Made by a program: the position numbers and the translations under genes. This document shows, piece after piece, positions 5,371-56,386 of a stretch of DNA of 64,000 nt. Numbering within the stretch: position 1 is the first letter of the stretch; each line of letters opens with the position of its first letter. The notes under the pieces were generated by a model. It did not search any database. It had not been told where the DNA came from and saw only the letters and a program-made list of their open reading frames with translations. The DNA comes from an uncultured virus (IMG/VR IMGVR_UViG_3300021087_000011) (lineage: Duplodnaviria > Heunggongvirae > Uroviricota > Caudoviricetes): the IMG/VR virus record IMGVR_UViG_3300021087_000011; one strand, given 5' to 3'.

Positions 5371-5451
5371 CAGCCGCCCAAGATCTCGGGCTGTCCGCCC
5401 AAGAGCAATACCCATATATAACCGCTAACCAGCCCAAGGGGGGCATTGAAT

Positions 5452-15260: not shown

Positions 15261-18200
15261 TCACGATGCCTCTTCCAGTGTCTTTCGATCCTTCTTGCGG
15301 GCGTGAACGATTTTGTTCATTTCCACACTGCCCATATTGCCAAAGCCTCCCAACGACTCCATTGGGGCGACATCTACAAACTCGACCATGTCTGGATCTA
15401 GGAAGAGATAGTCGGTACGATCCATGTCCCTAATACCTTTTTCGTGCGACTTGATTACGTCATAGCCGAGATCTTTAATACGAGCATTGATCTGTTTGCG
15501 GATATGTTGTATCCGTTCTGAGGGGAGGAAGCCTTCTTCATTCCATCCCTTTCCCCCTTGCTCTGGCCCCATCTCATTTGTCTGCAGAAATGTTTGTATC
15601 CACAGCAGGGTCTCTCTGCCGGTCAAAGCATCCCTGCCTCCGTTAAGACCATCGCGCTTGCGGGCAATGTCTTCAACAAGTTCGTCCAGGTCTTCTCCAA
15701 TCCAGGCATACGCTTGTCTCCAGCGTCCATCTCCAGTGACTATGGCATGTGCGACTTCTTCTCCCAGCCCGTGGAGCGTGGGTAGAACAACCTCATCGAG
15801 AACATCGTCCGGAAGAGACTCTTCAGCATCCAGTATTTGGGGAGGGTTCTCGCCCTTCCACTTCGTCGTATGCAAATGTTTAGGAACGGTCTTAATGGGG
15901 CCTGGTTCTGGGTAACCAGACTCCCCCTCGACCCATGTGCGCTCCCAGGGATTAGCCCATCCTTTGATCGCTGGGAATGCGCTAGATGTCGTATAAATGC
16001 CTGGCCCCCATTGACCAGAGTCATTACGGCTGACTTCGTATTCAACGTCTCCAGTCAAATCAATAGGGCCGCCGTGGTACAGGGTGATAGGTGTTCCCGG
16101 CGTCGTCGCCTTGTTCATATCCCAAGCGTTACTGACAATGTCTGGACCGTGGTCCCCTACACCGGAATCAAGACCAGAATGCACCAACCGCCGGAACCCG
16201 TTGACAGTGGTTCTAACGTGTCTGGCTTCGGCCAACTCTTCAAGGAACTCAGGGTCGCGTTCTTCAACAAGTTCCCGGACAGCGTCTAGTGTTTCCGGAG
16301 AGAGTGGTTTGAGATTCCCAAAATATCCCATAGGAGTGCTAAATAGGGCATTAGTGAGAGCGTCTATGTCATCATTTGATTGGTGAAGTTCTGCTTCGTT
16401 AAAGATCGAAGTAAGGGCTTCCATGCCTTGTTGGTATATCTGCTCTTCTTCACTATCTTCAGCGTCAGTTCTTTTCGAGGCAAGTCCATCAATCCCCATG
16501 TCGTCCAAATGCTGGTCGACCTGCTCTCGCGTAAGGAATGTGGCAGTTCCATCGTAAAACTCATCCCCAAATAGACTTACTTGTGTTTCTTCGTATTCAG
16601 CAGGAGTAAATCGTCCAGAGATGTCGGCTTCGCCAAGTTCGCCTGCTTCGTAATATGAATCCCTCGTCATGTCGGGTCGCTTTGCTTCAAGCAGTTCGCC
16701 CTCAGTGTCTTTAACATTGGAATAGTCGCGAACCATTGTCACGTTGCGTGCCGGCATTGACGCATTGGCCTCATTTGCCCTGTCAATTGCGTCCGTGAAG
16801 GAATCAATCGTTGACTGCTTCTGTTTGGGCGGCAAGTCCATCGTCTCTACGAGTTCGAGGATCTGTTCTTTGGCCTTGTCCCGGTCCGCTGAACTCATTA
16901 CCGGTGGGGGAGGTTTAACAACCTCATACTCAACCCAGGCGTGTCCTGACCGTTCTCCCACCTTGGGGAATACGGGTGATCCAACAACGACTCGAATGTT
17001 CTCTATGGGGTCACCGTCTACGTCCACGCCCTTTTCTGCAAGTTCTGCAGCAGCGCTATACGCGGCGGAATAACAGTCACCATCACCGGATCGCATTTCA
17101 TATCCGTACTGCTCTTCGAATGCCTGCTCACCGTCGGTCTGAATTCCTTTGAGTTTGAGGTGGCGGCGATAAGCATTTTGGAGGCTTTCACCTTCCTCTG
17201 GTTCCTCTGGCGACGAAAGCCACCTGTCTTTTTCACTCCCCCACGCCTCTTTACCTGCGGCGTGCGCTTCTTCCCGAGTGCTGCCACTATCGAGGGCTTC
17301 CTGTGTCGCCCGTTTCTTCAGTTCGTTCCTTCGATCGATATTCTCCATGATTGCGCTATTGCGGCCTTTGCGCAATTGCTTTAGTTTCTCGAATTCGGGG
17401 GTTTCGTGAAGGTCGTGTGTGGGGATGCCAATATCTGAAGGTTTGAAACTTATGGAGAGTTGGTTTCCATTGGGCAACACCGGACCATGTTTATTTTTAG
17501 AAAGGGTCTGGATCTGCTTTCTGGCGCCGGCCCTAACGTCTTGTCCGCGCAGTTGTGTGAACCTGATTGGTACAACTGTCATGCCCACTTCCCGTGCGGC
17601 AGCGAGTCGGTGATTTCCTTCACCGAGTACAAGATCTCCAGTTTCGTAATCATAATGACCTATTAGCGGCGAGAGGATACCAACCCTGCCGACGCTCTTT
17701 ACCAATTCGGTCTGGGTCATCTCGGTCAGGATTGCCACGTCGGGATCCGACTCGAACTCCCGTATTTCTCCAGCAAGAGCATAAGCATCGCCGTTTCCAT
17801 CATTACTGGCCGCTGCTCCAATGTTGCCCGGCATGTCGTCAAAGAACTCAATAGGGACAAGTTCAACGTCGCTTTCCTCGCGTCCATAGTCATACAGGGT
17901 CGCAACGGCACCGGGGTGAGGATAACGAGGATCGGTTACGTCAATGCCCAAGGCGTCGGCAACCTTCCGAGTTTCCTCTCCGTAGTATTTATTCCATTCT
18001 GAACTTTCGAGCCGCGCAACCTTTTGAACTCTCGGGTCTCCACCTCGGCGACTCTTGAAGCCGTCCTCGTCGCCGTAAGCGTCCTCGTCGCCGTAATAGT
18101 TGGGATCGTCAAAGTCCTCGTAGTCGAACCAAGAAGGGTGATCTCTAGGGTCTGGATCTGGAGGTGAACCCGGGTCGTAGCCAAACTCGTACAAGGAGTT

Positions 18201-21170
18201 GCCTTCAGAAACCAAATCTCCAGCCCGGACTTCCATCTCGGCAATCTCATAGTCCCCACGCATTGGCCCTTCACCATGAATTGCCGCATAGGTGGGAGAG
18301 GGGGTGACCCAGTCTCCAGGATTTATTTGACGTTTAGCCCTATGTGCTGCCAAGTCCTCCGGGGTGGTTGTTATGCCTGGCTGGGCGCGTCGTAAGTAGC
18401 GCAAGTCGGCGTCAGTCATGATCTTGCCGGAAGGGACGGCCCTGTAGGCCGTGATGATTTTGTCGGGGTTTTCGGCGGCGCTATCAAGCGCTTCTAACAT
18501 CTCATCATTTGCTCTTGCATATTCAGGATCACTTGTGCCTGAACCGTAGAACCGAATCCTGTGAGTGTTGTTTTCCCCCGCTTGGAGGGGAAGCCTGTTT
18601 GACAAATCATCGAGAGTGTCGCCACCCTCCGCGCTCTTGGTGGGTGCCTGATGTCTCCCCCGATATTCGGCTTGCTCGTGGGCTTCACTTTTGGAACGCT
18701 CGCGGGTTTCACGTTTGGAACGCTCGTGGGCTTCACGTTTGGAACGCTCGCGAATACTTTTCTCTCGTCGTTCTGTGTCCCATTTCCTGAAGCCCCCAGG
18801 ATTTTCGCCTTCTTCCCTGAGTCTTTCCGCATAAGTCTTACCCCTACGAGGATCATCTGAATGGGAGGTGGCACTGACCCGTGGCAGGTTGGCAATCTTC
18901 CCATGGTGAGTTGCTTGGTCCCCATCAATATCTGTAGGGTCAAAGATCTCTTCAAACTTCTCTTCATCATATATAACAAGGTTTCCGTCTTTAAAAGAAG
19001 CAACTAGAGAAGGTGGTGTATCAATAGTGTTACCGTTGTCGTATATATGGGCCTCATCTACGCGACCCTCTTCGATATACTTCACAACCTGATCACGAAC
19101 TTGACTCGCGTCTTCAGGCTTGGCGCCATACCTGCGCCTCTGCCCTGAGCGACGATCAGCAATTCTGCGACTCCGTTCTAAGTCGGAGACATAGAGGAAA
19201 TGCATTACCGAAACCCTGTCACCCCTCCGACCATTTCTGTAATCGCCCCTCTCATAAATCGTGTCCCCCAATAACCTTCCATCTTTGCCGGTTCCCTGAA
19301 CAACAACGTCTATTCCTTCATCCAGCGCTGCCCGTACAGTCTTTTCTGATTCGGTTCTGGAAAATTGGTGTGAATCAAAAGAACCCTCACCAAAATTCCA
19401 CAACTTATGGAATTCTTTGTAATCATCAGGGTTGGTATGGACGGCTTCACTTAAACTAGGAACCCCCAATTCCCCTCTGTCTGTTCGTGTAGTTTTTCCT
19501 GATCCGGGCGCACCAAAGACCCAATGAATTTGCTGCACAGGCTTACCGCGGTGTTCTTCATTGACGGCGTCCAGAGATGCTTTGCGGTATTTGGCTGCTT
19601 TGTCTGCTTCTGACAGATCCCTTTGTTCTTCTGGGGTTAGTTTGAAACCGCGTATCGATTTAAGTCCAACCGCTTCTTCAAAAGCGTAGTATTCGTACAT
19701 TAAATCAAGATCGTTATCGGTTATAGGGGCATCAGGCATCTCTTCCATGTCTCTTTCGAAAGTCCGCCGATCGCGACGTTCTGTTCTTAAATCGCGCCGC
19801 CTTTGGAGTCGATCCGCCCGTCGCTCCGCACGTCGTCGACCAGTTCGAGTAGAGGCAAATCCCGAAGGCAAGTCTGGATCCGTCCAGTCGCCACGCTCTT
19901 CGCGTGCGGTTCTTTCCGCTATAAGTCTATTGAGATAATCAGAATCGTAAAAGGGTCGCCGGTATCTAGACGGTAATCCTTGCTCAAGTCGGTCCCGATC
20001 CATTTGTTGAAGCCCTATTTGTGCTTTGATCTCCCTGTCAGTAAGACCTTCCACCCTGAGTGGATGACCCGTTACGGGATCTTTTTCGAGTCGCAGCCGT
20101 TCAACTTCTTTACGACGATCAAACTCTGCCAGCGCTTCTCTCGTAATCCGGTCAAGAGTCTCATCCGGCAAATTTTCCATTTCGGCAGGGATTTTAGAGT
20201 CATTGCCCCAACTCCAAGTTCCTGATCGCCCCTCCCCCAAGTCAACCTCGCGAGCCAGTCGATACAACTTGTCATCTGGTACGTCCGGATTAGCGCGACG
20301 CAACTTCTGCATCTGCGCATAGCCCGCCAGGTCCATTAAGTGATCTAGTTTTTCGCGCGACTCCCCAACAGGATCTTCCGGAACCACTGCAGGATCGACT
20401 TGTGCTGCAATTCCACGTCGGGAACGTAGGCCAGGGACTCGTGGAGTAGCCGGGCGCTCCCATACGGTTCCCTCTTGGACAATCATGTCCATGTCGGCAT
20501 CCCGTGCATCTCGATTAAAGGGGGTTGTTGCAGCAACTCGGGCACGGTTGAGTTTCCGACCGAGAGCCTTCCCTTCGTACAGTTCCTCCATCAATGACTT
20601 CTTCCGACGTAACTGCCGGCGAACCTCACGAGAAACTGCGCGCTCTAGCCTGCGCTGTGCTTGGCGGCGTTGATGATTGCGACCAAAAGCCGTTGATCCG
20701 GTGCGCTTTGCATAGTCGGTCATATTGCTACATGGCGTCCAAACGACATTCCCATTACGGGATACGCGCCTAGAAATACCGATACATCCGAGTTGACGGG
20801 ACCTCCTGCGGGCAAGCCGGGGAGTCGTGAACACATCGGGATCTTCATCGTCCGGAGCCCAAGGTGCGGCTTTGACAGAACCGCCGACAAGACCGCCTCC
20901 AGCGATCGTGTCGATGGAGGTCACACCCCGTTCCGCAAGGGGTTCCCAATCTCGTTTGTTTTTTCCTTTGGAATTGCGGTACCGGCGACGTTGTTCAACT
21001 ACCCGAACGGTGTTTTTCTTGTCTTTTTTGACAAGTTCTTCGTATTCCTCCATGGTTGCGCACGGCATCCACTTCCCGTCGGGGTGTTGGTGCGCGCCAG
21101 AGCAGCCCATTTGTTGGGCGAGGCGTAGGGCGGCTGCCTTGGATGCCACCAGGTCGGTATCAGCCGCCAT
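15261..21170 (-). CDS. giant polyvalent virion protein (2x DUF3721-like, zeta-toxin-like P-loop kinase, ART-like, ParB-like, papain-like, ART-like)
   Basis: GCSGAH..WMPC; GAPGSGKT..NPDDYK; YRA..INPGDWVT; GEGNHRLAAA; GDCY..HAWVE..D; LYHGG..GPGIYTT..GYD. Confidence 0.85.
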   Translation of the reverse strand: MAADTDLVASKAAALRLAQQMGCSGAHQHPDGKWMPCATMEEYEELVKKDKKNTVRVVEQRRRYRNSKGKNKRDWEPLAERGVTSIDTIAGGGLVGGSVKAAPWAPDDEDPDVFTTPRLARRRSRQLGCIGISRRVSRNGNVVWTPCSNMTDYAKRTGSTAFGRNHQRRQAQRRLERAVSREVRRQLRRKKSLMEELYEGKALGRKLNRARVAATTPFNRDARDADMDMIVQEGTVWERPATPRVPGLRSRRGIAAQVDPAVVPEDPVGESREKLDHLMDLAGYAQMQKLRRANPDVPDDKLYRLAREVDLGEGRSGTWSWGNDSKIPAEMENLPDETLDRITREALAEFDRRKEVERLRLEKDPVTGHPLRVEGLTDREIKAQIGLQQMDRDRLEQGLPSRYRRPFYDSDYLNRLIAERTAREERGDWTDPDLPSGFASTRTGRRRAERRADRLQRRRDLRTERRDRRTFERDMEEMPDAPITDNDLDLMYEYYAFEEAVGLKSIRGFKLTPEEQRDLSEADKAAKYRKASLDAVNEEHRGKPVQQIHWVFGAPGSGKTTRTDRGELGVPSLSEAVHTNPDDYKEFHKLWNFGEGSFDSHQFSRTESEKTVRAALDEGIDVVVQGTGKDGRLLGDTIYERGDYRNGRRGDRVSVMHFLYVSDLERSRRIADRRSGQRRRYGAKPEDASQVRDQVVKYIEEGRVDEAHIYDNGNTIDTPPSLVASFKDGNLVIYDEEKFEEIFDPTDIDGDQATHHGKIANLPRVSATSHSDDPRRGKTYAERLREEGENPGGFRKWDTERREKSIRERSKREAHERSKRETRERSKSEAHEQAEYRGRHQAPTKSAEGGDTLDDLSNRLPLQAGENNTHRIRFYGSGTSDPEYARANDEMLEALDSAAENPDKIITAYRAVPSGKIMTDADLRYLRRAQPGITTTPEDLAAHRAKRQINPGDWVTPSPTYAAIHGEGPMRGDYEIAEMEVRAGDLVSEGNSLYEFGYDPGSPPDPDPRDHPSWFDYEDFDDPNYYGDEDAYGDEDGFKSRRGGDPRVQKVARLESSEWNKYYGEETRKVADALGIDVTDPRYPHPGAVATLYDYGREESDVELVPIEFFDDMPGNIGAAASNDGNGDAYALAGEIREFESDPDVAILTEMTQTELVKSVGRVGILSPLIGHYDYETGDLVLGEGNHRLAAAREVGMTVVPIRFTQLRGQDVRAGARKQIQTLSKNKHGPVLPNGNQLSISFKPSDIGIPTHDLHETPEFEKLKQLRKGRNSAIMENIDRRNELKKRATQEALDSGSTREEAHAAGKEAWGSEKDRWLSSPEEPEEGESLQNAYRRHLKLKGIQTDGEQAFEEQYGYEMRSGDGDCYSAAYSAAAELAEKGVDVDGDPIENIRVVVGSPVFPKVGERSGHAWVEYEVVKPPPPVMSSADRDKAKEQILELVETMDLPPKQKQSTIDSFTDAIDRANEANASMPARNVTMVRDYSNVKDTEGELLEAKRPDMTRDSYYEAGELGEADISGRFTPAEYEETQVSLFGDEFYDGTATFLTREQVDQHLDDMGIDGLASKRTDAEDSEEEQIYQQGMEALTSIFNEAELHQSNDDIDALTNALFSTPMGYFGNLKPLSPETLDAVRELVEERDPEFLEELAEARHVRTTVNGFRRLVHSGLDSGVGDHGPDIVSNAWDMNKATTPGTPITLYHGGPIDLTGDVEYEVSRNDSGQWGPGIYTTSSAFPAIKGWANPWERTWVEGESGYPEPGPIKTVPKHLHTTKWKGENPPQILDAEESLPDDVLDEVVLPTLHGLGEEVAHAIVTGDGRWRQAYAWIGEDLDELVEDIARKRDGLNGGRDALTGRETLLWIQTFLQTNEMGPEQGGKGWNEEGFLPSERIQHIRKQINARIKDLGYDVIKSHEKGIRDMDRTDYLFLDPDMVEFVDVAPMESLGGFGNMGSVEMNKIVHARKKDRKTLEEAS
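18674..18752 (-). repeat. 24-bp in-frame tandem repeat, about 3.3 copies
   Basis: GCTCGYGGGYTTCACKTTTGGAAC units encoding ERSKRE(A/T)(H/R). Confidence 0.9.
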
Positions 21171-21175
21171 TGCGA

Positions 21176-21484
21176 TTAGCCGCCTTGAATTTTGGCAGCA
21201 GCCTGTTTCGCGGCCTCTGAATCATTTGGATACCGCTTCATGTACATGCGGGCTTCTTCGATTTCATCGGCCCACTTTTGCATTACTTCAGCGTATGGAT
21301 CATCTTCTTGATCATCGATTGCGTGTATGAATTCGTGAGCGAACTGTTGCCGTTGTTCACTATTGATAGAGAACGGTGGAAATTCAAGTAGGTGTGACAG
21401 TTCCCTATGGGTTTCAACCAGTTCAGCCCTGCGGGCATCTTCTGCGTCCATCTCTTCACGAGTCATATCCAGTGTGTACTTCAT
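21176..21484 (-). CDS. hypothetical protein
   Basis: 102-aa ORF translationally coupled to its neighbours. Confidence 0.75.
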   Translation of the reverse strand: MKYTLDMTREEMDAEDARRAELVETHRELSHLLEFPPFSINSEQRQQFAHEFIHAIDDQEDDPYAEVMQKWADEIEEARMYMKRYPNDSEAAKQAAAKIQGG

Positions 21485-31754: not shown

Positions 31755-32425
31755 TATTCACATCCGCAATCGCCAGGGGAGAAATCCACACTCACCAAAC
31801 TGCCAACTGCATCCTCTCCTTCTATTTCCCAACTCTCAAAGTCTCTGAGATAAGAAACGAAGTCGGGCTCCATGTCCACAAAGTCGCGAAGCACGCCCGA
31901 AGCATGCTTGAAATCAGCATCGGTTACTACTGGATTATAGTTCCTGCCACCCTGTGAATCTTTGACCTCTGTGAAATCTCCAAAGAAGAAATCTTCTTCG
32001 TAAACCATTTCATGCTCAAGGGCGTCTTTTTTTCCTTTTTTGATGCGCTTTTTGAATCGTTTACGCATCCTCTTCCCCCACTCGTCGTCCGACCATCCTA
32101 ACTTCCGAAGTTTGCCTTTACAATTCTTCATGCCTGGGTGATGGCATCCTTCGTTGGGCCACTTGCCCGTTGTTTCATGATGGAGCCACGCGCAGATTCG
32201 TTCCAGTGGATATAACTCTGGATGGTTGGCGAGAATGACACGACAACGTGTGAAACCGCCGGGTTTTTTCATGATTGGCCTCCAATAACGGAGGAGTCTT
32301 TCGAGATTTCCACGACGAGGACCACGACCACGGGTAATGGATGTCAGACGCTCCTGTGGGAGGTCCAGCAACACATCCTGTGGCCCCTTGACTTGGTAAT
32401 CGTTATCAGTTTCCATTACGCCCAC
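31754..32425 (-). CDS. phage head-module protein with Cys/His motif
   Basis: LLRYW..PGGFTRC..L..ICAWLH..TGKWP motif of the kind seen in actinophage head modules. Confidence 0.7.
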   Translation of the reverse strand: MGVMETDNDYQVKGPQDVLLDLPQERLTSITRGRGPRRGNLERLLRYWRPIMKKPGGFTRCRVILANHPELYPLERICAWLHHETTGKWPNEGCHHPGMKNCKGKLRKLGWSDDEWGKRMRKRFKKRIKKGKKDALEHEMVYEEDFFFGDFTEVKDSQGGRNYNPVVTDADFKHASGVLRDFVDMEPDFVSYLRDFESWEIEGEDAVGSLVSVDFSPGDCGCE

Positions 32426-32705
32426 TTAGCAATCTACGAACTGTTGGTTCAAGCCCAATCGAATGACGCATTCCCCATAGGGCAGCATCCTTGGAGTCCC
32501 TGAAATCATGACCCACTGTTGGCATCGACAAGCCGAATGTTGTTTCTTCAATAAGACTACGCCGTTCGCCGTGGTGGGGATCAGTACCTGTCTCCAATTC
32601 TCGCAGACGACCGACGAACTCATCGACACTTTCTTCTTCACTTTGTTCAATGAGGTCATCACCAAACAGTTCTGTCCGTCTGGCACGCCAGCGTTCGTCA
32701 GCCAT
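32406..32705 (-). CDS. hypothetical protein
   Basis: 99-aa ORF overlapping both neighbours. Confidence 0.6.
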   Translation of the reverse strand: MADERWRARRTELFGDDLIEQSEEESVDEFVGRLRELETGTDPHHGERRSLIEETTFGLSMPTVGHDFRDSKDAALWGMRHSIGLEPTVRRLLSGRNGN

Positions 32706-43388: not shown

Positions 43389-43408
43389 CTGGGCCTACCT
43401 TCTAATCC

Positions 43409-45121: not shown

Positions 45122-45128
45122 TAGGGAA

Positions 45129-48100
45129 TCACTGCCAGTCGCTCGTTCCGTTATCGAGGAGTTTTTCGAGGAACTTGTTTAAGGCTGCGATGCGTATTGG
45201 TGTCATCGATTCCACCTCAGGATGAGTCCGCCCGGACGATTGGTCGACAACTTCCAAATAGTCTATTAGTGCCTTAGTTCGTTCTAATTCAGTAGTTTTA
45301 GACTTTTTTGTCAACCTATCTAACACGTCGAATAGCGCATCGACGATATCTGGTATGGCATTGTTGTCGATTTGTACTTCACCTGCTGGACTCTGGTGGG
45401 GATTCTTTGGTCCATACCTGATAGAAGAAGAATTGAAATACTCGAAACTTTTTTTCAACCTCTCTAGAGCCCTACGCTTAACGGAGTCACGTTCTTGTTT
45501 AATCTCCCCGTCAAGGGAATCGTAAACAATTTTGAAAAATGGGGAAGATTGTTTAAAGGTTGAGCGATCTTTGGTGTTCCGGGCTGCACGCTGTTTAGAC
45601 ATGTCGCGATGAGACCTAAACCCATCAGACTCCGTACCGCGTCGGGACATGAATGCATCACCGCGTCGGGCTCCTGGTCGAGGTTCAAAAGCAGCCGGCT
45701 CATTGTCGCTCCCCTCAACCTCTTCAGTGCGGTTTCCACGGAATGCAGTTTCGGCGGCTTCCATATCTGCTTCGACAGAAGCGATCAGTTCATCTACACG
45801 TTGATCCGCTTCTTCCTGGGCTGTCAGTCGGCCAGCACTGCGTTCTTCTGGGGTTTCCATGGCTCGTGCGTGGAGTTCCTCATCAGGACGACGCAGTAGT
45901 GGACCCCCCAACACGCTTTCTATGTCCTCCTCGGACAAAGGCTCGCCCGGCGTGAAGCGCGGTGCCGGCGATTCAGATCGCGGTCGTCCCTCAACGTCGT
46001 CCAGATAATGGCGATCAGAAACAGCCCCTACTAGGCCGTCTCCAAATTGCTGCCCAAGTCGGGCACTATCACGGTCCTCTTCAGCCAGCCTTAATCTGCG
46101 CATGGCCAATGCGACGAGTGCCTCTTTGCGCATTGGCTCGGGTTCGAGTCGCGCGCGTTCCCTCAGGGACCGCTGGAATTGACTGCGTTGTTCCATGGGA
46201 ATACTCAAGTCGAAGTCGCGAGCCTCACGCCGTGCCAACTCTAGGAAGGCCATCTGCTGCCATGCCTCGTTCTTCCAAAAATCCGGTGAGACCGCAATGT
46301 CGGATCGGGTTGGATGCGGCGGATATGTGGGTGCTTCAAGAATCTTTCGGAGATGCCCTTCATTGAGGTAACGGCCTCCAGCCATCTTGGCTACTGTTGC
46401 TTCCTGGCTCCCAGCCGTCAGCCCGGGTGGATGGCCGAGTGCCCGATGCAGTTTGTTGCCGAAATGTACGACTTGTGTTTCCAGGTTGGGCGTGACGTAG
46501 CCCTCTCGTTCGTTGACTCCGGGCTTACCGACAGTGATAGTGCCGTCGTCCTGGGAATAAATGCCGCCGATCCCATCCAGCCTCCCGTCTTCTGCCAGTC
46601 GTGAGAGCGCATGAAACAGAACTGCGGCCTCATTAAACTGCTCTTCGTCGTCTCCAACGAGAGCAAGTCGACCCACATTATTTTCACCAAATCCCCACGC
46701 TTCTAGTTCGCGGAGCGTGCCGGGGTGTAGGTGGGTCTCGTTCGCAGAGTCCAACCGTCCTAACAAATTGTCAATAATGTCTCTGATTGCGAGTTCCTGT
46801 TGAATGGATCGCGCCTGTACTCCGGAGAGTCCTTCATCGGGGTTGGCGGCGAGTGCCGGAAGAAGCCCATTCAGTTCGTCAGCACTCATGTCGCTTAATT
46901 CATGGGGTCTTGTTCGATGTAGTGATTCGATTGCTCCTTCGATCCCTAGTTGGTCTTCGACGGAGGCAGGGTCTTGTTCGGGTTCTTCAACCATGGCGCG
47001 GTAATGTGCCCGGGCGTTCTGAACTTCCCCTTCCAGGGCATCCAGATCAACAGGTTCCATCCAGGACGCGGAGTAGCCCGGTTCACTAGTCGGCCCTTGG
47101 GTGTGCGCCTCTCTCATGATTTCCCCCGCCGGCCTCCTGTCTTGTGGTCCTCGTTCGATGTGTTCCCCGTGTCTTATCTCATCAAGATCACCATCGGACG
47201 GGATGCCTCCCGCTTCGAAGGCCGCTTCCACATCGGATCTTGTCAACAGGGGGATGCCATCACCGTCGACATCGTCTGAAGCGTAAGACCAGATCACAGC
47301 GTCATCGGGTTCCAGGCCATCAGCCCACAGCGGGGTCCGTGCGCCGCTTGGACCGCCCCTCCGATGTTCCATCCATTGATCAATGGCCTCAGACAATGTT
47401 CCAACGAATTCTTCAGGGCCGTCGTAATTGGCTCCACCCATTAGGTCATAACTGCCATGCCTGTTCATAGGGGGCCATATTTCACCGGTGCCGGTGTCGG
47501 GTGCGTTGGCATAGTGGCCCGGATTCAAAAGTCGGCCCTCGTCGAACTCCGCGAGTTCGCCAAGCGTTTCTCGCAGGACTCCTTCGTCCATCCCCTCTAG
47601 GGCGATGCTGACGATCCGTCCCGCTTCCTCCAGACTGACCCCTTCCTCCCTGGCAACGTCATGGGCTGGCGTGCGTCGAGAAGAGAAGCCCCCTGGTCCC
47701 CCTACTGTGCTCCCGTAATCAGGGAACCGTGGACCTTGGTCCGTAAATTCCTGTGCAGCGAGATCTACGACCCGTAGGAGTCTCTCATAGCCCTCCTCCT
47801 GGTCCCACAGCCCACCCCCCTTTGGCACGTTCTCGTGGCCCGGGCCGAGGTCTTCTCGATCGTTGATGCCAAACGCTCGGCGTACTTTGTTCATGGCCCG
47901 ATCGAATGAACGAAGGATTGGATCTGGCATTCCCAGTGATCGAACCTCAGACGCCGTTAGAGTTTGACGCATCCAAGCAATAACGTCCTCGTCAGGGCTA
48001 TCCGGACCCGGTACTCCTCGCCGCACGAACCCTTCGACATCATCCGCAAATCGTCCCTCATCGCGTCGAGAAGAGAAGCCCCACGGCGTCCGAACCGGGT

Positions 48101-51100
48101 TCATCTGTCCCATTACGTCGTCCTCATCCTCTCTTATTTGGAGTTGCTCTTCTTGGGATAGAGCCCGGCGGGCAGCGACACGCTCCTCAAATTTCTGATC
48201 GTCCTTCGCTTTTTGCTGACGGCGCTTTTCTTCTCGCTTCGCCCTCCACTTTTTGTTCTTTTCCATCTCTCGGGCAGACTGTCTGCTTTCCCTTGCAACT
48301 CGCCGAGTTTCCCGATCTCCTCGCCGAGAGCGGAAAGCCTCCCCAAGACTTTCAATCTCTTCTCTGTTTTCTGATTCGCCGCGCCGGGAACTCAGACCGA
48401 AACGTTCATCGAGATTCCTCTCGATAGAGCGGTCTATTGCGCGTCCCTTCCTGTACTTCTCCATACCCGTTCGAACGGCAAGGGCTGCCTCCCGTGAAAC
48501 CCCCATACCAGTCGGTGGGCGTTCAGCAGGTTTGGGGCCAAATCGTTCATCTTCTCTTGACACCCGAGCCGTGCCCCCCGGGTCGTCTGGGTCATCGTCC
48601 CCTTCAGGCGCTGCATCCGTGCCGAGCCACCTGCGGGCCGTGTCCTCCACATCTTCGATGAAGGGGTCGCCACGTTTAATGAACCTGTCGTCTTCATACT
48701 GTTCGCGGAGTGTTACAACCTGTTCTCTCAGCCGACCAGCAAAAGTCATGCTTCGATCTTCGTCGGCAGTCAATGTCCGGGCTGTTTGATCTTCGAGATA
48801 ATCATCGATCTGCACTCCCAGTCGTTCAATCACGTCGAACGTTAAATCTTCGTCTCCATCAAGAGTGTCTTGCAGGGAGTCCCAAAATTCCACATGTGAT
48901 TCATCCGCCCTGTCGTCCATGACTGCCGTCGCAAGGGCGTTGCGTTTTATGCCGATGTTGATATCAAGGGCATCCATAATCCTGAGACGCCGGTCAAGGG
49001 CCACCTGTGCATCTGGAGATGAACTTTGCCGACCAACGTCATCCTCAATATTCTGCCCACCCTCTGGATCAAGTAGTTGTTCGCGTTGGCTGCCCCCTAT
49101 CCCAGGCTGGAAAGCATCGGTGTTACGCTCCCCCGTTGCGCTGGAGAGCACTGTGTCTTCTTGGGGCCGCCTCGTGCGACGCTGGATGGCTGGCTTGTTC
49201 TTAGCGGCGTCAGCCAGCCTCTGCCTTCGTTCCCTTCGGCGTCGTGACATGGCCAGGGCTGGGTTTGCACGTTCTTCTCGGGTTTGGATTTCTTCAAGTA
49301 GTCCGCCGAGGATTCGGTCGTAGTCGACAGACCGGAGACGTTCCTCGGGGGGCGGCCAGTCAAAAACTTGCGGCTTGTTTGGATCGGAACGTGGATTGAA
49401 GTTGATCATCAACTCATCCACTTGTTCATTAATGCTTAGTTCGTCCCAGTTCTCTGGTTTAACTTCGTCCCATTTTCTTCCAACGAAACGTGCCTGTCCG
49501 GGACCCATGCCTGTTGGTTCGTTAGGTTTCTTCAGACCCCCCGGACTCTTCTCTGGGGTTCCTCTAGATGATCGAAGACCTCTACCTTCTCCGTACTGAG
49601 GCATTCCTCTGCCGGCTGGGCTGTAATTCGCGTAGTAGTCGTGAAGTCGAATCCAGTCTCGCGGAGACAACTGTTCTCCACCTCGGTCATAACGCCGCAC
49701 TAAGTCTTGGACCACATGGAAGCCGCCCTGTTGGCGTGCCCAGTAGATCAAGTCACCTTGGAGTCGTGGCGTAATGTCCGCAGGCGCACCATTGTTGGGA
49801 CGCCGTGAAGCAAACCCATGGTCCCTGTCAGGGAACTGTGAGTCCTTGGCAAGATTAGGAGAGACCCACTTGCCCTTTTTGGAAAAGGCCGCCATTTCAA
49901 GAACATCTCGGCCGGGTTTGAAATAACCATCTGGATCTACTGCTTCAAGACGAGCATATGATTCAAGGATTTGGTTGTATTCAGCAGAATCCAAACTGAC
50001 TTTGCCACCCTTGGAATCTTGGAGTTTCTTGTCGTATGCGGACAGGCCGAGTTCGATGTCGGGGTGTCCGTCATACTTGGCCCGCGTGGATTTCAAACCA
50101 TCACTAATTTCGCCAATTTCCCCCTCAGAAAGGGACACTTCCATCCGACCACTGTGGTGGGCGTTGACTCGTCGTCCAGGGTCCGACCTAATTGCGGCAG
50201 CAGCATCACGCAGTAGTCCTGCAACATGTGGCTCTTCATCACGCCAGATGTTGTCGGCCAGACTGTTGAGTTGTTTAACCAGGTCCGACCTGTCTATAGG
50301 TTTGGCCGGAGAGGTGTTTGTTCCGTCGAGGATTTTTTGGGCTTTCTTGAAAGTTTCAGATTCATATCGATCTAGTCCTCTGTGATCCCTCAGCCTGTTG
50401 GCGTGCCTTTTCAATTTCTCACCCAGGGTCGGCAACTCGGTGGGAAGGCCCATGCGGTCCACAACCGTGCCATCGGGCTTGATCAAGTATGACTCTCTAC
50501 CTTTAACCCATTCGTTGATCGCAGCGCCCAGACTGCTCTCAGCGTCCACAACGGCGGCAATGTCGGAAGCGATCCCACCGTAGATGTATGTCCGTCCCCC
50601 TTTGAAGGTGACGGCGAGTTCTTCATCGCCAGCGTTGTAATGAGCAGCGTTGATGGCGGTACTTGCGGATGTGTCTAGTTGGAAATCTTCGCCGAGTCCA
50701 GCGCCACGCTGTGATCGGAAACCCGTTCCTTTGGGTTTGAAGTCCTGAAGACTCCCGGTTGTTGCATCGATTCGGGTTGACTCCAGATCATCACCAAGTG
50801 CGAGTCCTGTGGCCCGGCGGTATTCGTCGTCGGTGCGTAAGCGGGCTATGCGCAGATTCAGAAGTTGCGTCGAGCCAATCCGGTCAGCGTAGGACACTAG
50901 CGAATCATCTGGTTTAACTTCGATTCGCATATTGCGGTCGAACTTGTCGATTTTTTCAGCAGCCTCTAGAACTATATCTGCTCCATTCGGTGCATGTTGT
51001 TGGACATCCATCTCGGCGCCGTAGACATTCTGCTCCGCTTCTTCTATGTCCTTGAGAACATCTATTGCCGAATTCCACTCATATTCAAGAGAAGTTTCCC

Positions 51101-54098
51101 ATCCGGGTTTACCACGAGTCTCATCGACTGCCAGGTCTTCGAAGTGGCCGCCGCGGTCATTCCGGCGATCATCATTTCGTTCCAAAATATATTCTGGAGT
51201 GAATAGAGCACGGAAACCTTCGTAGTCGTTGTTTTTTAAAAACTCTAGGATCTTGTCTTCATCTAGATATGAGCCATCCGGCATGTGACTAGGAGCGAAG
51301 TTCTCTTCAATCTCCGTAATATGACTATCGAGATATCTGCGGTGATCCTCTAATTCACTACTCACTTCATTGCGACGGTCCTCTGCGGCGTGATAATAAT
51401 CATTCTCTTCCCTGAAGAAGTCGAGTACGTCGTCGTATTCTTTTTTCAATTCTTCCCATGTGCTGAAAAGATCGTCCCACTCTTCATGACCTCCAGGAAA
51501 GTTCTCTATGCCGGGGTAGGAGCGAGTATCGGGGTCATAATCGTTTAACAGGGTCTCATCGAAATGAGGATTTTCTTGCAAAAAGTTGAGCATCTGTTCG
51601 CGAGCATCTATGAGATTTTGTAGATTCCCATATGAGTTTTCGGAGTGGAAATTCCTTTTGGAAGCCAGCCCGGATTGCCTTAACGGGGGAGGGTCCATAA
51701 GGGAGGTGACCTCTGCCTCGTTGAAGCCTCGACTGCGAAGTTCGGCGGCTCGGCGGCTGGCGAGACCTGCCTCCGTCGCCCTGTTCCAAACGACCGTTTG
51801 GTCGCGAGCAAGTTGGGGGGTACGAAGAGATCCTCGCTCTATCCGCTGACCGCCTTCCCTCTCAGGGGACACCGCTGTGGCCCGGAAATCAAACCTGTTT
51901 CTGGTGGATTCCAAACCCTGACGGGCGCGCCTTCTGTGACCCTGAGCGGCGCTGCCCCCACGAGCAGCCACGAGCATGCGCATCCTCCTGGTTTCAGGAG
52001 CGATGCTTTGTGTGTCAACGCCAATATCTGAGGGCTTGAAACTGGGTCCAAGAAGTTCCCCATTGGCGTTGATCAGATCACCCCTACTGTTTGCTCGGGT
52101 AGGGATTTCTTTTTTAGGACCACGGATATCCCTCCGCTTGGCCGAAGGTTGTCTGATCATCCTCACTGGGACAACTTGCATACCTAATCGCTGTGCGGCG
52201 GCCAGCCTGTGGTTTCCTTCGTCGAGAGCAAGAGTGCCGGTTTCTGGATCGTATTGAACCACCAACGAATGCTTGATGCCGTTGGCGCGGATGTCCTCTG
52301 TCAACTCGTCCAACTTCCCCATAATGATGGGGGCGTCTAGTTCATAACTTCGCATCTCTCCAGCACGAGTGGCGGCGTCCTCATCCCAACCGTTGCTGGC
52401 TGAAGGTCCGATGTTGCCCGGCATGTCATCGAAGAATTCGATGGGTACGAGTTCGGTATGGTCGAAGTTGTAGAAATCAGTCAGAGCGGGATGAGGGTAG
52501 ATCGGGTCGCTTACGTCTTGGATTCCATAAGCCTTGATGATTTTTTGGATCTGCTCATTGCGGAACGCTTCATATTCATCACGGGTAAATTGCCCCATGC
52601 GTTCCTTGGTTGGGGGGCGTTCTTCTGCTCCGACACCTTCTGGTCGAGCATCTGGAGTGGGGGTATCAAGATCGGTCTCGTCACCCTCTTCATCCCAATT
52701 GCGCCCCTGTAGGAGGCGTCTGCTGGAACGGAAACCACGAGATGGTCCTGGCTTACGGGGAAGTGCCGGTCGTTCCCATGGTGTGCCCTCCTGGACAAGC
52801 ATGTCCAAGTCAGCATCTCTGGCATCTGGGTTAAACCTTGTCGTGAGGGCTCTCCCAGCCCTACGAACTTTTCCCGACCCTCCACCACCACCTCGGGAAA
52901 GGCCACGACCAAGCCTCCGGCCTAGGGCCTTTGTAGCCGTTTCAACGGCTTCGATGAAGTCGGGTGTCGCCCCCGATTTGATGATAATTCCTTCTTCGGT
53001 CACCTCGGCGATTGCGCCGTGGTAATCAATGATGGGATCCAGTAGAGACTTGGTAGCGAAAGCATCTTCAAGTTTGCAAGAAATGACCAGTTGGTCTTCA
53101 CCTTTTGCACTGTCGTCGCTGTCCAGTTTTTGGACAATGCGCATGATCCTTGGCATGACAGTGTCTTGCGGGTTCTGCTCGTAGCGGTTAGCCGGATTGA
53201 TTTGTGGCTTTACTTGAACTCCCGGGGGTTTGACTGGCGCGTACACCATCTGCGGAATAACCCGTTCAGGTTGACCCAGCATAAAACCCCGTTTCGGGCA
53301 ATGATGGAAGTGAACTCGATACATGGCCGTTCCATTATCGGAACGTTGAACCTGGAAGACGGCTACACCTTCTGTGGCGCTAATGAGTTTGATCGGCTGT
53401 GGTGAGCGAGACTGCAACTCCAGTTCCAACTTGTGATCATGCTCGTCGGACATGCTCTCAGTCCGTGGAGTCTCGACGGGCATCATTGCGAGCATCCCGT
53501 CTTTCTCGTCGAGGTCATCAAAGGCGAATTCGAGATCGTGGGTCTCTGTGATGGGACGCTCCATAAGGGCCGCTTCAGCGCCCTTGACGGAGATGGTCCC
53601 CGTGAGTTGGTTTGCCCCATGCAGTACCGGAGAACATTCGTACAGTTCTACTTCGTGCAGAATGTTTGCTTGTCGAACAGGATCGAATGTGGCGTTGATG
53701 GTCTTGTAGCCGATTGACCACTCTTGTTCACCACCAAAGAAGGCAACGTTGGCGAAGGCTTCTCGACCCTTTTCGGATCCGAGATTGAATTGGACTCGTG
53801 CATACAGGCCCCCGACACCTCCCGCTTTCATTTTTTCTGGGAGGCGTGGATCGCTAGGTCCCACTTCTTGGATGTCTAGAACTTTCCCAATAGGGTCATT
53901 CCAGTTGTGGCCCCAAACAACACGCGGCTTGCGCCGTTGAAGAGTGCCGGCAAAGGCTCCTGGCTGAATAATGTCGCCGACGGAGTCCTTGTTGCCGATG
54001 CCTGCCACGAAACATTCGACAATACCTTGAGCCTTGTCAACGCTAACCTGGCCGTTGCTGGCTTTGATTTGGATATCTGTTTCCATCCCTACAGGCAT
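45129..54098 (-). CDS. HK97-family prohead protease fused to a ~2800-aa polyvalent extension (ParB-like, KTSC)
   Basis: GDIIQPGAF, VVWGHNW..PIG, WSIGY, ELYECSPV..GAN at the N-terminus; DEGNHRLAAA; STAINAAHY..LAVTFKGGRTYIY. Confidence 0.92.
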   Translation of the reverse strand: MPVGMETDIQIKASNGQVSVDKAQGIVECFVAGIGNKDSVGDIIQPGAFAGTLQRRKPRVVWGHNWNDPIGKVLDIQEVGPSDPRLPEKMKAGGVGGLYARVQFNLGSEKGREAFANVAFFGGEQEWSIGYKTINATFDPVRQANILHEVELYECSPVLHGANQLTGTISVKGAEAALMERPITETHDLEFAFDDLDEKDGMLAMMPVETPRTESMSDEHDHKLELELQSRSPQPIKLISATEGVAVFQVQRSDNGTAMYRVHFHHCPKRGFMLGQPERVIPQMVYAPVKPPGVQVKPQINPANRYEQNPQDTVMPRIMRIVQKLDSDDSAKGEDQLVISCKLEDAFATKSLLDPIIDYHGAIAEVTEEGIIIKSGATPDFIEAVETATKALGRRLGRGLSRGGGGGSGKVRRAGRALTTRFNPDARDADLDMLVQEGTPWERPALPRKPGPSRGFRSSRRLLQGRNWDEEGDETDLDTPTPDARPEGVGAEERPPTKERMGQFTRDEYEAFRNEQIQKIIKAYGIQDVSDPIYPHPALTDFYNFDHTELVPIEFFDDMPGNIGPSASNGWDEDAATRAGEMRSYELDAPIIMGKLDELTEDIRANGIKHSLVVQYDPETGTLALDEGNHRLAAAQRLGMQVVPVRMIRQPSAKRRDIRGPKKEIPTRANSRGDLINANGELLGPSFKPSDIGVDTQSIAPETRRMRMLVAARGGSAAQGHRRRARQGLESTRNRFDFRATAVSPEREGGQRIERGSLRTPQLARDQTVVWNRATEAGLASRRAAELRSRGFNEAEVTSLMDPPPLRQSGLASKRNFHSENSYGNLQNLIDAREQMLNFLQENPHFDETLLNDYDPDTRSYPGIENFPGGHEEWDDLFSTWEELKKEYDDVLDFFREENDYYHAAEDRRNEVSSELEDHRRYLDSHITEIEENFAPSHMPDGSYLDEDKILEFLKNNDYEGFRALFTPEYILERNDDRRNDRGGHFEDLAVDETRGKPGWETSLEYEWNSAIDVLKDIEEAEQNVYGAEMDVQQHAPNGADIVLEAAEKIDKFDRNMRIEVKPDDSLVSYADRIGSTQLLNLRIARLRTDDEYRRATGLALGDDLESTRIDATTGSLQDFKPKGTGFRSQRGAGLGEDFQLDTSASTAINAAHYNAGDEELAVTFKGGRTYIYGGIASDIAAVVDAESSLGAAINEWVKGRESYLIKPDGTVVDRMGLPTELPTLGEKLKRHANRLRDHRGLDRYESETFKKAQKILDGTNTSPAKPIDRSDLVKQLNSLADNIWRDEEPHVAGLLRDAAAAIRSDPGRRVNAHHSGRMEVSLSEGEIGEISDGLKSTRAKYDGHPDIELGLSAYDKKLQDSKGGKVSLDSAEYNQILESYARLEAVDPDGYFKPGRDVLEMAAFSKKGKWVSPNLAKDSQFPDRDHGFASRRPNNGAPADITPRLQGDLIYWARQQGGFHVVQDLVRRYDRGGEQLSPRDWIRLHDYYANYSPAGRGMPQYGEGRGLRSSRGTPEKSPGGLKKPNEPTGMGPGQARFVGRKWDEVKPENWDELSINEQVDELMINFNPRSDPNKPQVFDWPPPEERLRSVDYDRILGGLLEEIQTREERANPALAMSRRRRERRQRLADAAKNKPAIQRRTRRPQEDTVLSSATGERNTDAFQPGIGGSQREQLLDPEGGQNIEDDVGRQSSSPDAQVALDRRLRIMDALDINIGIKRNALATAVMDDRADESHVEFWDSLQDTLDGDEDLTFDVIERLGVQIDDYLEDQTARTLTADEDRSMTFAGRLREQVVTLREQYEDDRFIKRGDPFIEDVEDTARRWLGTDAAPEGDDDPDDPGGTARVSREDERFGPKPAERPPTGMGVSREAALAVRTGMEKYRKGRAIDRSIERNLDERFGLSSRRGESENREEIESLGEAFRSRRGDRETRRVARESRQSAREMEKNKKWRAKREEKRRQQKAKDDQKFEERVAARRALSQEEQLQIREDEDDVMGQMNPVRTPWGFSSRRDEGRFADDVEGFVRRGVPGPDSPDEDVIAWMRQTLTASEVRSLGMPDPILRSFDRAMNKVRRAFGINDREDLGPGHENVPKGGGLWDQEEGYERLLRVVDLAAQEFTDQGPRFPDYGSTVGGPGGFSSRRTPAHDVAREEGVSLEEAGRIVSIALEGMDEGVLRETLGELAEFDEGRLLNPGHYANAPDTGTGEIWPPMNRHGSYDLMGGANYDGPEEFVGTLSEAIDQWMEHRRGGPSGARTPLWADGLEPDDAVIWSYASDDVDGDGIPLLTRSDVEAAFEAGGIPSDGDLDEIRHGEHIERGPQDRRPAGEIMREAHTQGPTSEPGYSASWMEPVDLDALEGEVQNARAHYRAMVEEPEQDPASVEDQLGIEGAIESLHRTRPHELSDMSADELNGLLPALAANPDEGLSGVQARSIQQELAIRDIIDNLLGRLDSANETHLHPGTLRELEAWGFGENNVGRLALVGDDEEQFNEAAVLFHALSRLAEDGRLDGIGGIYSQDDGTITVGKPGVNEREGYVTPNLETQVVHFGNKLHRALGHPPGLTAGSQEATVAKMAGGRYLNEGHLRKILEAPTYPPHPTRSDIAVSPDFWKNEAWQQMAFLELARREARDFDLSIPMEQRSQFQRSLRERARLEPEPMRKEALVALAMRRLRLAEEDRDSARLGQQFGDGLVGAVSDRHYLDDVEGRPRSESPAPRFTPGEPLSEEDIESVLGGPLLRRPDEELHARAMETPEERSAGRLTAQEEADQRVDELIASVEADMEAAETAFRGNRTEEVEGSDNEPAAFEPRPGARRGDAFMSRRGTESDGFRSHRDMSKQRAARNTKDRSTFKQSSPFFKIVYDSLDGEIKQERDSVKRRALERLKKSFEYFNSSSIRYGPKNPHQSPAGEVQIDNNAIPDIVDALFDVLDRLTKKSKTTELERTKALIDYLEVVDQSSGRTHPEVESMTPIRIAALNKFLEKLLDNGTSDWQ

Positions 54099-56324: not shown

Positions 56325-56386
56325 GGGTGTTACCCTAGCGCACTCGCCAGCCTGCTCTAGAATGTATGAGAACTGGAGTTGTGATC

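Follow-up and report, generated by a model that had tools for sequence, protein, structure and literature searches.

What is the role of a short peptide that recurs many times in giant proteins encoded between the portal and capsid genes of a tailed phage? The question is raised by an uncultured member of the Caudoviricetes (IMG/VR record IMGVR_UViG_3300021087_000011), of which a stretch of 64,000 nucleotides, here called the window, was analyzed. Five of its proteins, p2989, p2464, p1098, p2767 and p1969, which sum to 11,287 residues, carry copies of the strict pattern G[LFW].S.R. A preliminary description of this DNA had regarded the motif as a cleavage signal that releases small effectors from precursors packaged in the capsid. 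We found that the motif is real and is under strong selection at the peptide level. Furthermore, it appears to co-evolve with something in each lineage and to mark leader ends and cassette boundaries in linker-like sequence, and on balance it is probably a proteolytic processing mark that delimits the cargo cassettes of capsid-packaged polyproteins.

The strict pattern was scanned in 27 open reading frames (ORFs) of the window, namely the five giants and 22 others. We found 33 copies (12 in p2989, 3 in p2464, 1 in p1098, 12 in p2767 and 5 in p1969), exactly the numbers that the preliminary description had reached by hand. No copy was found in the 22 other ORFs, which include those for the portal, capsid, terminase and ribonucleotide reductase as well as p570, p657 and p223; the earlier remark that the capsid, portal and replication proteins lack the motif also held. 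Fewer than one copy had been supposed to occur by chance, and the shuffles gave 0.56-0.75: the expectation was 0.64 (maximum 4) in 2000 whole-protein shuffles, 0.75 in 300 shuffles of ten head-module proteins, and 0.56-0.68 (maximum 4) in 1000 local shuffles within stretches of 20, 40 or 100 amino acids (aa), which retain the local richness in Arg, Gly and Ser. The 23 permuted orders of the four letter classes gave 0-3 copies apiece. Together, the local shuffles and the permuted patterns rule out a compositional artefact of linkers rich in these residues.

Variants with a single deviation from the pattern are not enriched (observed versus expected, 7 versus 7.6, 5 versus 5.6, 6 versus 11.6 and 6 versus 7.4), and both G[LFW].T.R and G[LFW].S.K are absent, so that no Thr stands for Ser and no Lys for Arg in the window. 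The near variants pointed out earlier, AFRSRR and DLESTR in p2989 and DIQSQR in p657, do exist, but such variants are at the level of chance. The codons of the motif are varied: all four Gly codons, all six Ser codons and all six Arg codons are used, and eight codons occur at the hydrophobic position. This heterogeneity, together with the lack of enrichment of one-off variants, indicates that selection acts on the peptide and not on a DNA repeat; a repeat or recombination signal at the DNA level is ruled out by the use of every synonymous codon family. In p2767, aa 600-720 and aa 1660-1780 form an internal duplication, each part with two motifs and near-identical flanks, and at least 2 of the 33 copies stem from it (620/697 versus 1683/1760). 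Except in these duplicates, the motif flanks are mutually unrelated, and BLAST among the giants detected only the leaders and one ParB-like block; remnants of domain duplication are thus ruled out, save for two p2767 copies.

Capsid relatives numbered 409 in IMG/VR, of which the best 80 loci were kept, and whole portal-to-capsid regions were compared between the window and five records (G002-G006). All five keep the same gene order: portal, protease, giants, p570-like, giants, p223-like, p657-like, giants, capsid. Close relatives, with capsids 95-96% identical, have the same strict motif in their giants. More distant relatives are without it, and gapped-pattern discovery gave other over-represented patterns, such that each of the five records has its own motif, almost only in the giants: G-L-a-S-s-T in G005 (core L.S.T; 26 observed, 2.5 expected), G-M-x-S in G003 (core GM.S; 44 and 3.2), [ST]-L-R-S-s-G in G004 (core LRS; 27 and 4.1), s-T-R-S in G002 (core TRS; 45 and 5.6) and I-S-G-r-M in G006 (core IS..M; 21 and 1.4). 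The motif of a further locus, L005, is G-x-R-S. Serine occurs in all six lineage versions and in the same register in five of them; G006 has Met there and Ser three residues earlier. One homologous site (aa 1983 of p2767), which follows a conserved eight-residue block, bears each lineage's own motif: GLASRR in the window, GLASTT in G005, SLRSSG in G004 and GLASSS in locus L060. Different motifs at one homologous site indicate that the site has been rewritten lineage by lineage. G004 and G005 differ in their motifs at three positions; between these two the identity is 95.3% for the capsid, 85.8% for the protease, 84.4% for p570, 82.8% for the portal, 79.5% for p223 and 68.4% for p657.

A second shared element stands directly before the first motif. 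BLAST among the giants revealed a leader of about 70 residues common to p2989 (aa 388-458), p2767, p1969 and p1098, which consists of a K-A-L-G-R-x-[LI]-G box, a basic Gly-rich stretch and a D-x-D-x-D-[GM]...Q-E-G-T...E-R-P module without a Pfam match. All four leaders are on the minus strand, as are all motif coordinates given here, in which aa numbers denote the first residue of a copy. They lie in p2989 at 52719..52931 (K-A-L-G box at aa 390, D-x-D-x-D module at aa 428, first motif GFRSSR at aa 455), in p1098 at 35398..35598 (box at aa 133, module at aa 158, sole motif GLQSQR at aa 194, 35398-35415), in p2767 at 28972..29223 (box at aa 188, module at aa 221, first motif GLSSRR at aa 266, 28972-28989) and in p1969 at 20415..20570 (box at aa 201, module at aa 224, first motif GLRSRR at aa 247, 20415-20432). 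The leader profile matches these four of the five window giants and, over the six genomes, 12 places; in 7 of the 12 the first motif of the lineage follows 1-22 aa downstream (four in the window and one each in G004, G005 and G006). This order of leader and first motif may reflect a propeptide-like arrangement. G002 and G003 account for the five exceptions, and in these the next core match comes 71-422 residues further on.

The box, in the form K-x-[LIV]-G-x-x-[LIV]-[GN], is found a single time within the N-terminal 20-250 residues of almost every giant in the six genomes, including p2464, and the window boxes are at 52908-52931, 42903-42926, 35575-35598, 29200-29223 and 20547-20570 (minus strand). 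The looser K.[LIV]G is not significantly enriched (13 versus 8.6 expected). The leader of p2464 carries an RCPPG...FTD module instead, and p657 has a related RCPEG...FTD. In p2989, the leader is located after the protease and two further conserved domains; a leader-plus-cargo unit thus has the protease joined to its N-terminus. As a lead only, the leader box K-[ASG]-L-G resembles the predicted capsid junction K-T-L-G (K-S-[IV]-G in relatives). Database proteins with the leader (P0001, P0003 and P0004) derive from TARA samples and from bins of marine metagenomes that carry the labels Planctomycetota or Phycisphaerae, which hints at the host or at mis-binned phage contigs.

The further copies are distributed along the variable parts of the giants. 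In p2989 they are GLESTR at aa 728 (51900..51917), GLASRR at aa 778 (51750..51767), GLASKR at aa 810 (51654..51671), GFRSQR at aa 1126 (50706..50723), which is 20 aa upstream of the KTSC domain, GLKSTR at aa 1334 (50082..50099), GFASRR at aa 1428 (49800..49817), GLRSSR at aa 1507 (49563..49580), GLSSRR at aa 1901 (48381..48398), GFSSRR at both aa 2007 (48063..48080) and aa 2137 (47673..47690), and GFRSHR at aa 2826 (45606..45623). The three of p2464 are GFRSTR at aa 1321 (39411..39428), GLASRR at aa 1874 (37752..37769) and GLKSSR at aa 1938 (37560..37577). In p2767 follow GLASQR at aa 391 (28597..28614), GLRSQR at aa 464 (28378..28395), GLQSSR at aa 620 (27910..27927), GWYSRR at aa 697 (27679..27696), GFQSTR at aa 958 (26896..26913), GLRSQR at aa 1372 (25654..25671), the duplicates GLQSSR at aa 1683 (24721..24738, of the aa 620 segment) and GWRSQR at aa 1760 (24490..24507, of the aa 697 segment), GWRSTR at aa 1849 (24223..24240), GLRSTR at aa 1913 (24031..24048) and the GLASRR of the homologous site at aa 1983 (23821..23838). 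The remaining copies of p1969 are GFASTR at aa 437 (19845..19862), GLKSIR at aa 502 (19650..19667), GFKSRR at aa 1037 (18045..18062) and GLASKR at aa 1562 (16470..16487).

The surroundings of these copies are linker-like. Comparison of coordinates placed none of the 33 within any Pfam or PHROG envelope, and hydrophobic residues make up 19.5% of the flanks (15 aa on either side) versus 25.4% over the five giants, a value as low as in none of 10,000 random sets of 33 positions; the earlier impression that the motifs mostly fall in linkers between recognizable domains is supported by this. As far as the sequence tells, no copy lies inside a folded domain, where it would hardly suit a cleavage signal, with the limit that the variable parts have no confident structure. 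A conservation map against the other lineages (BLAST) showed conservation in N-terminal and in some C-terminal blocks, with hypervariable stretches between them, the first motif being at the end of the N-terminal block and the last p2767 motif at the start of the C-terminal one.

Some cassette boundaries also coincide with the motif. The p1969 orthologues of phages with 95-96% identical capsids are 1969, 1693 and 3005 aa long and differ by indels that span hundreds of residues; one breakpoint is exactly at the end of the first motif, and another, in L003, comes immediately after a motif. Furthermore, the natural C-terminus of the window p1969 aligns to G-G-GLKSSR and G-G-GLASRR in the two longer orthologues, which run on into further cassettes. 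This was put in numbers with complete shorter ORFs that stop within a longer homologue, the latter from a lineage whose motif is defined, leaving out pairs at least 95% identical (likely assembly differences) and motif-less subjects, and collapsing near-identical subjects. The lineage motif starts -10 to +25 residues from the aligned C-terminus at 5 of 9 collapsed sites versus 1.23 expected (P 0.003); if the homologous site of the GMxS and sTRS lineages is counted once, the figures are 4 of 8 (P 0.015).

The window carries a phage head module, whose genes on the minus strand run portal, p2989, p570, p2464, p1098, p223, p657, p2767, p1969, capsid. p2989 (45129..54098) is an S78 prohead protease, in the first 180 aa, joined to a polyvalent polyprotein of 2800 aa; p2464 (35994..43388) has a K-S-L-G box, the RCPPG leader, an HExxH region and an ART-PolyVal domain; p1098 (32698..35994) has a leader and HEFTH at aa 509 (34456-34470); p2767 (21481..29784) has a leader, a helix-turn-helix (HTH) segment like sigma-r4 and a conserved C-terminal block; and p1969 (15261..21170) has DUF3721, a leader, a zeta/AAA_33-like kinase, SAF and ParB. 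Pfam and PHROG searches thus found, within the same polypeptides between the portal and capsid genes, many conflict-related domains of the polyvalent type: ParB_N (twice), KTSC, ART-PolyVal, zeta/AAA_33-like kinase, SAF, DUF3721 and sigma-r4-like HTH. Cysteine makes up 0.1% of the residues of the giants and is mostly N-terminal, and p570 and p223 are Cys-rich.

The most probable explanation that joins these results is that the region between the portal and capsid genes encodes cargo polyproteins, each of which would be brought into the procapsid by its conserved leader (the K-x-L-G box with the D-x-D-x-D or RCPxG module), one of them being fused translationally to the S78 prohead protease. A cut at the first motif, directly after the leader, would detach the leader, and cuts at the later motifs in hydrophilic linkers would free cassettes (ParB-like, KTSC, ART, zeta-like kinase, HTH and many unknowns), which may then travel with the DNA as separate proteins. 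The likeliest cut would be before the Ser common to all six versions, G-[LFW]-x / S-x-R, since assemblin-fold prohead proteases favour Ser at P1'. We favour a processing mark because it alone explains the selection, the co-evolution, the leader ends and the cassette boundaries together, with precedents in T4 and phiKZ-like phages. The cleavage signal of the preliminary description is supported in part, by the lineage versions, the converted site, the first copy after the leader and the orthologue termini, and is weakened in respect of S78 as the reader.

Several observations weigh against such processing. Among 38 distinct related loci whose ORFs upstream of the capsid gene add up to at least 1800 aa, only 13 have a Ser-type motif above the shuffle null, a test of low power at about 3000 aa. 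Four of the nine terminus sites were missed (L005, L002 at the end of its zeta protein, L072/L073 and a p657-like protein), and some cassette junctions are free of the motif, for example that of the window p1969 before a shared block, where L003 has a motif. Cutting at every copy would leave pieces of only 32-94 aa, of doubtful use. In T4 and phiKZ-like phages the capsid obeys the same consensus as the cargo; here the capsid and portal of the window are without the motif, and no consensus including the capsid was found. Packaging, cleavage, the position of the cut and injection are moreover all read from sequence.

Which enzyme would read the motif is a separate matter. The fused S78 protease is the obvious candidate, and a cut before the motif Ser would be in line with the cuts in HK97 and P1 and with the P1' preference of SPN3US gp245. 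The S78 domain of p2989 (aa 5-182; 53553..54086, minus strand; Peptidase_S78 E 3.8e-08, phrog_80 head maturation protease E 4.9e-27) has invariant His64 and Ser128, which we take to be its catalytic residues, with equally invariant surroundings in six lineages. The domain is 66-72% identical to that of the window in five lineages with unrelated motifs (mean column identity 73%), which again counts against the scheme, and the assumption that the fused protease reads the motif is weakened by this conservation across differing motifs and by the capsid without a copy. The predicted capsid maturation junction K104/T105 (14699-14704, minus strand), located by alignment of relatives and by K103/S104 of HK97, is ambivalent: it resembles hydrophobic-x / S, a point in favour of S78, but as Y-K104 / T105-L-G it shares with the strict pattern no more than the hydrophobic-x-[S/T] core, and it is conserved across lineages whose motifs differ, a point against S78. 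No lineage's full motif occurs in the capsid, the sole match being one chance LRS three-letter core in G004. For the S78 domain (aa 1-185, 6 alignment rows) paired with the p1969 leader and first motif (86 aa, 4 rows), a complex prediction reached 0.02, where the mark is 0.32, and speaks neither for nor against binding. We can thus name S78, acting inside the procapsid, only as a tentative reader.

Somewhat more tentatively still, the reader may be an HExxH peptidase-like region that the cargo encodes and that evolves fast, or some other protease, and it may act after ejection. In p2464 the HExxH is HEYTH at aa 596 (41589..41603, minus strand), and this motif and a downstream Glu are invariant in 10 aligned homologues of the family at 14-24% identity; p1098-like proteins have a second HExxH. 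The region has no Pfam match at E up to 0.5 and, by profile, no PDB sequence match below E 0.05, and its AlphaFold2 model from 10 sequences is unusable (mean predicted local distance difference test, pLDDT, 38.9). The region fits a putative metallopeptidase of the kind predicted to process polyvalent proteins. A code of two tiers is also conceivable, in which S78 would read an HK97-type K / x-L-G site at the capsid junction and the leader boxes, and the HExxH region or p657 would read the fast-evolving motif; we regard this combination as doubtful. If it were true, a second enzyme would free or activate dozens of effectors only once these had been ejected into the host, and the rewriting of 20-45 sites per genome would be the signature of an arms race, such as escape from host proteases or protease-sensing defences.

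Among explanations without cutting, the motif might be a site for modification of the Ser, most simply phosphorylation, by p657 or by the zeta/AAA_33-like domain of p1969, which would regulate packing, release or activity of the cargo; lineage motifs would then track the substrate preference of the kinase. The constant Ser of the lineage versions, often with Arg at -1 or +2, the lack of Thr substitution in the window and a kinase-like fold encoded in the locus argue for it and, to that extent, against processing. There is a precedent in CotH, which phosphorylates repeated Ser sites in disordered coat proteins. p657 (29781..31754, minus strand; RCPEG leader at aa 131) has a protein-kinase-like C-terminal part at aa about 385-657 (nucleotides 29784-30602): in the AlphaFold2 model from 17 sequences (mean pLDDT 64.8; residues 205-650 mostly 75-90), Foldseek matched CtkA at E 1e-4, VIA gave Z scores of 14.1 for CtkA, 13.2 for CotH and 12.5 for HipA with 211-228 residues aligned, and the fold of actin-fragmin kinase also matched. 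An ESM Atlas search with p657 gave nothing usable (best 0.88; an actin-fragmin kinase cluster at rank 26). The protein is the most divergent of those conserved in all six genomes, at 41-47% identity between distant lineages and 63-68% for two sister pairs, and its 68% identity between G004 and G005, despite 95% identical capsids, means that its rate fits the turnover of the motif.

However, the 17 p657 sequences show no clear conservation of the Lys, Asp and Asn that usually serve in catalysis: there is no invariant N-lobe Lys, the second Asp is present in most only, and D515 is the only invariant residue of the catalytic-loop region, so that p657 may be a pseudokinase or no protein kinase. 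Its leader-like N-terminus would be expected of cargo rather than of an assembly enzyme, and it is retained in lineages without giants or a detectable motif; loci L045 and L047 have no giants and keep p570, a 1400-aa core of the p2464 family, p223 and p657. A phosphosite would leave the first copy after the leader and the coincidence with termini unexplained, and four strictly fixed positions with no tolerated variants are unusual for kinase sites. On these grounds modification is an unlikely function of the motif. As a side observation, p657 is conserved in six genomes and 17 loci and has a separate highly conserved domain at aa about 205-355, and in two loci (L033:768-2060 and L034:768-2060, plus strand) its homologue has 431 aa and ends where the kinase-like domain starts elsewhere, a point that corresponds to the low-confidence linker 357-385 of the p657 model.

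Improbable to much the same degree is a multivalent docking peptide that stays uncut and tethers the giants to a receptor inside the capsid (the shell, a core protein such as p570, or the portal) or, once ejected, to a host factor. Such a role would suit a short peptide that is strict and recurs many times per protein in disordered, hydrophilic surroundings, lineage-specific versions would imply a co-evolving partner, and the shell has the HK97 fold, as in encapsulins, whose cargo peptides are short Gly/Ser/hydrophobic/basic motifs. Known loading peptides are, however, terminal and single, whereas the copies here are internal and up to 12 per protein. The conserved leader, a separate element, already resembles a targeting element, and tethering predicts no coincidence of C-termini or cassette boundaries with the motif. 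The capsid protein in particular is judged unlikely as the receptor, because the G004 and G005 capsids are nearly identical and their motifs different. Lastly, a junction scar or favoured linker without any reader, spread by recombination and duplication during cassette shuffling, would fit the cassettes gained or lost beside motifs between very close relatives, the two plain duplicates and the preference for TCN as the motif Ser codon (30 of 33 copies versus 67% of all Ser codons of the giants, P 0.0015), but is very improbable, given the otherwise unrelated flanks, the use of all synonymous codon families, the intolerance of one-off variants and the conversion of every copy in whole lineages to another motif, which needs selection by a reader.

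How would a proteolytic processing mark of this kind compare with known systems? The head proteins processed by T4 gp21, with their capsid-targeting sequences, and by phiKZ gp175 and SPN3US gp245 are alike in having an assemblin-fold phage protease of the head module and a short consensus across head-internal proteins. The protease here is of the S78 family (HK97 type), and the prohead proteases of T4 and phiKZ belong to other families. The gp245 of SPN3US cleaves head proteins at AXE, with Ser preferred at P1', and so removes N-terminal propeptides of 20-254 residues (PMC10052503), gp21 of T4 cleaves at I/LxE (bioRxiv 10.64898/2026.03.04.709575), the HK97 capsid is cleaved at K103/S104 (PMC10275583) and cleavage in P1 is at E120/S121 (PMC9024508). 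Most SPN3US substrates lose 111-254 residues (PMC10052503), and here the leaders give about 190-450 residues before the first motif. The consensus of T4, phiKZ and SPN3US has two fixed positions and its sites are only in propeptides, whereas the present motif has four, with up to 12 copies inside proteins of 2000-3000 aa, between effector-like domains, and with none in the capsid or portal. Unlike in those phages, the motif changes wholly between lineages with a protease about 70% identical, and one substrate is fused to the protease.

Polyvalent proteins have been predicted to be packaged and delivered together with the DNA, and to be split into units by a metallopeptidase domain (Iyer et al. 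2017, PMC5512222), and, as far as that text was available, they resemble the giants in their very large multidomain form, their late or structural gene context and their ParB-like and ART-PolyVal domains. The same part of it names no cleavage signal and mentions no prohead-protease fusion (PMC5512222), whereas a defined lineage-specific motif and a leader are found here; KTSC, S78 and HK97 do not appear in the whole text, and "prohead protease" appears in its reference list only. DarB is likewise a giant anti-defence protein with an N-terminal loading signal and an HK97-type head, encoded near portal and protease genes (PMC9024508, in the part available). It is packaged as one protein, Dar proteins were found to have no common signal, and that part describes no repeated internal motif. 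In MuF-fused polymorphic toxins of temperate phages, the available text similarly describes head-module proteins with variable C-terminal effectors thought to travel in the capsid, with a single toxin domain on a MuF scaffold and with neither a repeated motif nor a protease fusion (PMC5576092). In HK97, with its gp4 protease and gp5 capsid protein, the order of portal, S78 protease and capsid with an N-terminal scaffolding domain is the same, and K104/T105 is nearly at the position of the HK97 cut. Unlike in HK97, about 38 kb of cargo genes lie here between the protease and the capsid gene, and the protease is fused, or in relatives possibly frameshift-coupled, to a polyprotein. RNA virus polyproteins are single long products with a terminal cis-acting protease, strict short sites between the units, and sites and enzyme that co-evolve between lineages. 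They would work alike; here the host of the system is a double-stranded DNA tailed phage, the products would be virion cargo, and there is no homology.

Head-protein processing and polyvalent proteins are known already. What is new is the strict, lineage-specific motif in many copies, the common leader, the fusion of protease and polyprotein, and the scale, about 38 kb of a genome of about 135 kb; a clade of uncultured phages devotes about a quarter of its genome to such giants. In the full-text literature, with subscription journals largely outside it, we found no published description of the motif, of such a leader or of an S78-polyvalent fusion. Phages inject proteins with their DNA, and the cutting of polyvalent proteins was predicted in 2017, the signal for that cut being previously undefined. 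The motif would predict exact products, about 38 pieces from the five proteins, and breaks unknown sequence, thousands of residues long, into candidate effectors. It also supplies reporter substrates with which the S78 protease, the HExxH regions and the kinase-like protein can be assayed. With every site converted by lineage and the protease and capsid nearly unchanged, it is an uncommonly clear example of a peptide signal that evolves together with its reader. Should leader and motif work as proposed, they would form a natural system to load foreign proteins into phage heads and release them.

The other genes of the head module have no copy of the motif. The portal protein (652 aa; 54196..56154, minus strand) matches Phage_portal at E 3.8e-53, and the major capsid protein (446 aa; 13673..15013, minus strand), with the HK97 fold and an N-terminal scaffolding domain, matches Phage_capsid at E 4.1e-45. 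p223 (31754..32425, minus strand) is conserved and rich in Cys and His. p570 (570 aa; 43409..45121, minus strand) is Cys-rich and conserved in all six genomes; its N-terminus has CxxC pairs, a Pro/Glu/Ala-rich stretch and PepSY-like repeats (PepSY being a lead from ESM Atlas clusters only, in a search that otherwise gave nothing usable), and its C-terminal 90 or so residues are strongly conserved and match positions 529-582 of 607 of phrog_80 at E 3.9e-4. This tail could be a scaffold or targeting tail.

The closest cultured phages by capsid, from Gordonia, Brevibacterium and Streptomyces hosts, are at most 56% identical, and no cultured member of the group was found. In Gordonia phage Chidiebere, cargo-like genes lie between the portal and protease genes, and the 13 of its head genes that were checked hold neither the leader module nor the motif. 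A further record, G001 (24 kb), gave no capsid match. In G002 and G003, the protease ORFs (474 and 508 aa) end at or just after a conserved run, GGTGGTTCAAAAAAATA (about L093:8520-8620 and L096:6870-6965, minus strand), and the next giant ORF (3336 and 3472 aa) is open in the -1 frame across GGTGGTTCAAAAAAATA and starts with the K-x-L-G box. Slippage by -1 at an A AAA AAA site could yield in these phages the same protease-polyprotein fusion that the window encodes in frame; alternatively, the split may reflect a homopolymer assembly error. The terminase large subunit (56366-57691) is transcribed divergently from the head module, which is flanked, on the plus strand, by a transposase-like ORF (5446-6384; phrog_4285, E 1.2e-26), a ribonucleotide reductase gene (9938-11860; phrog_367, E 4.9e-140) and a PAPS-reductase-like gene (62862-63992; phrog_2302, E 9.8e-77).

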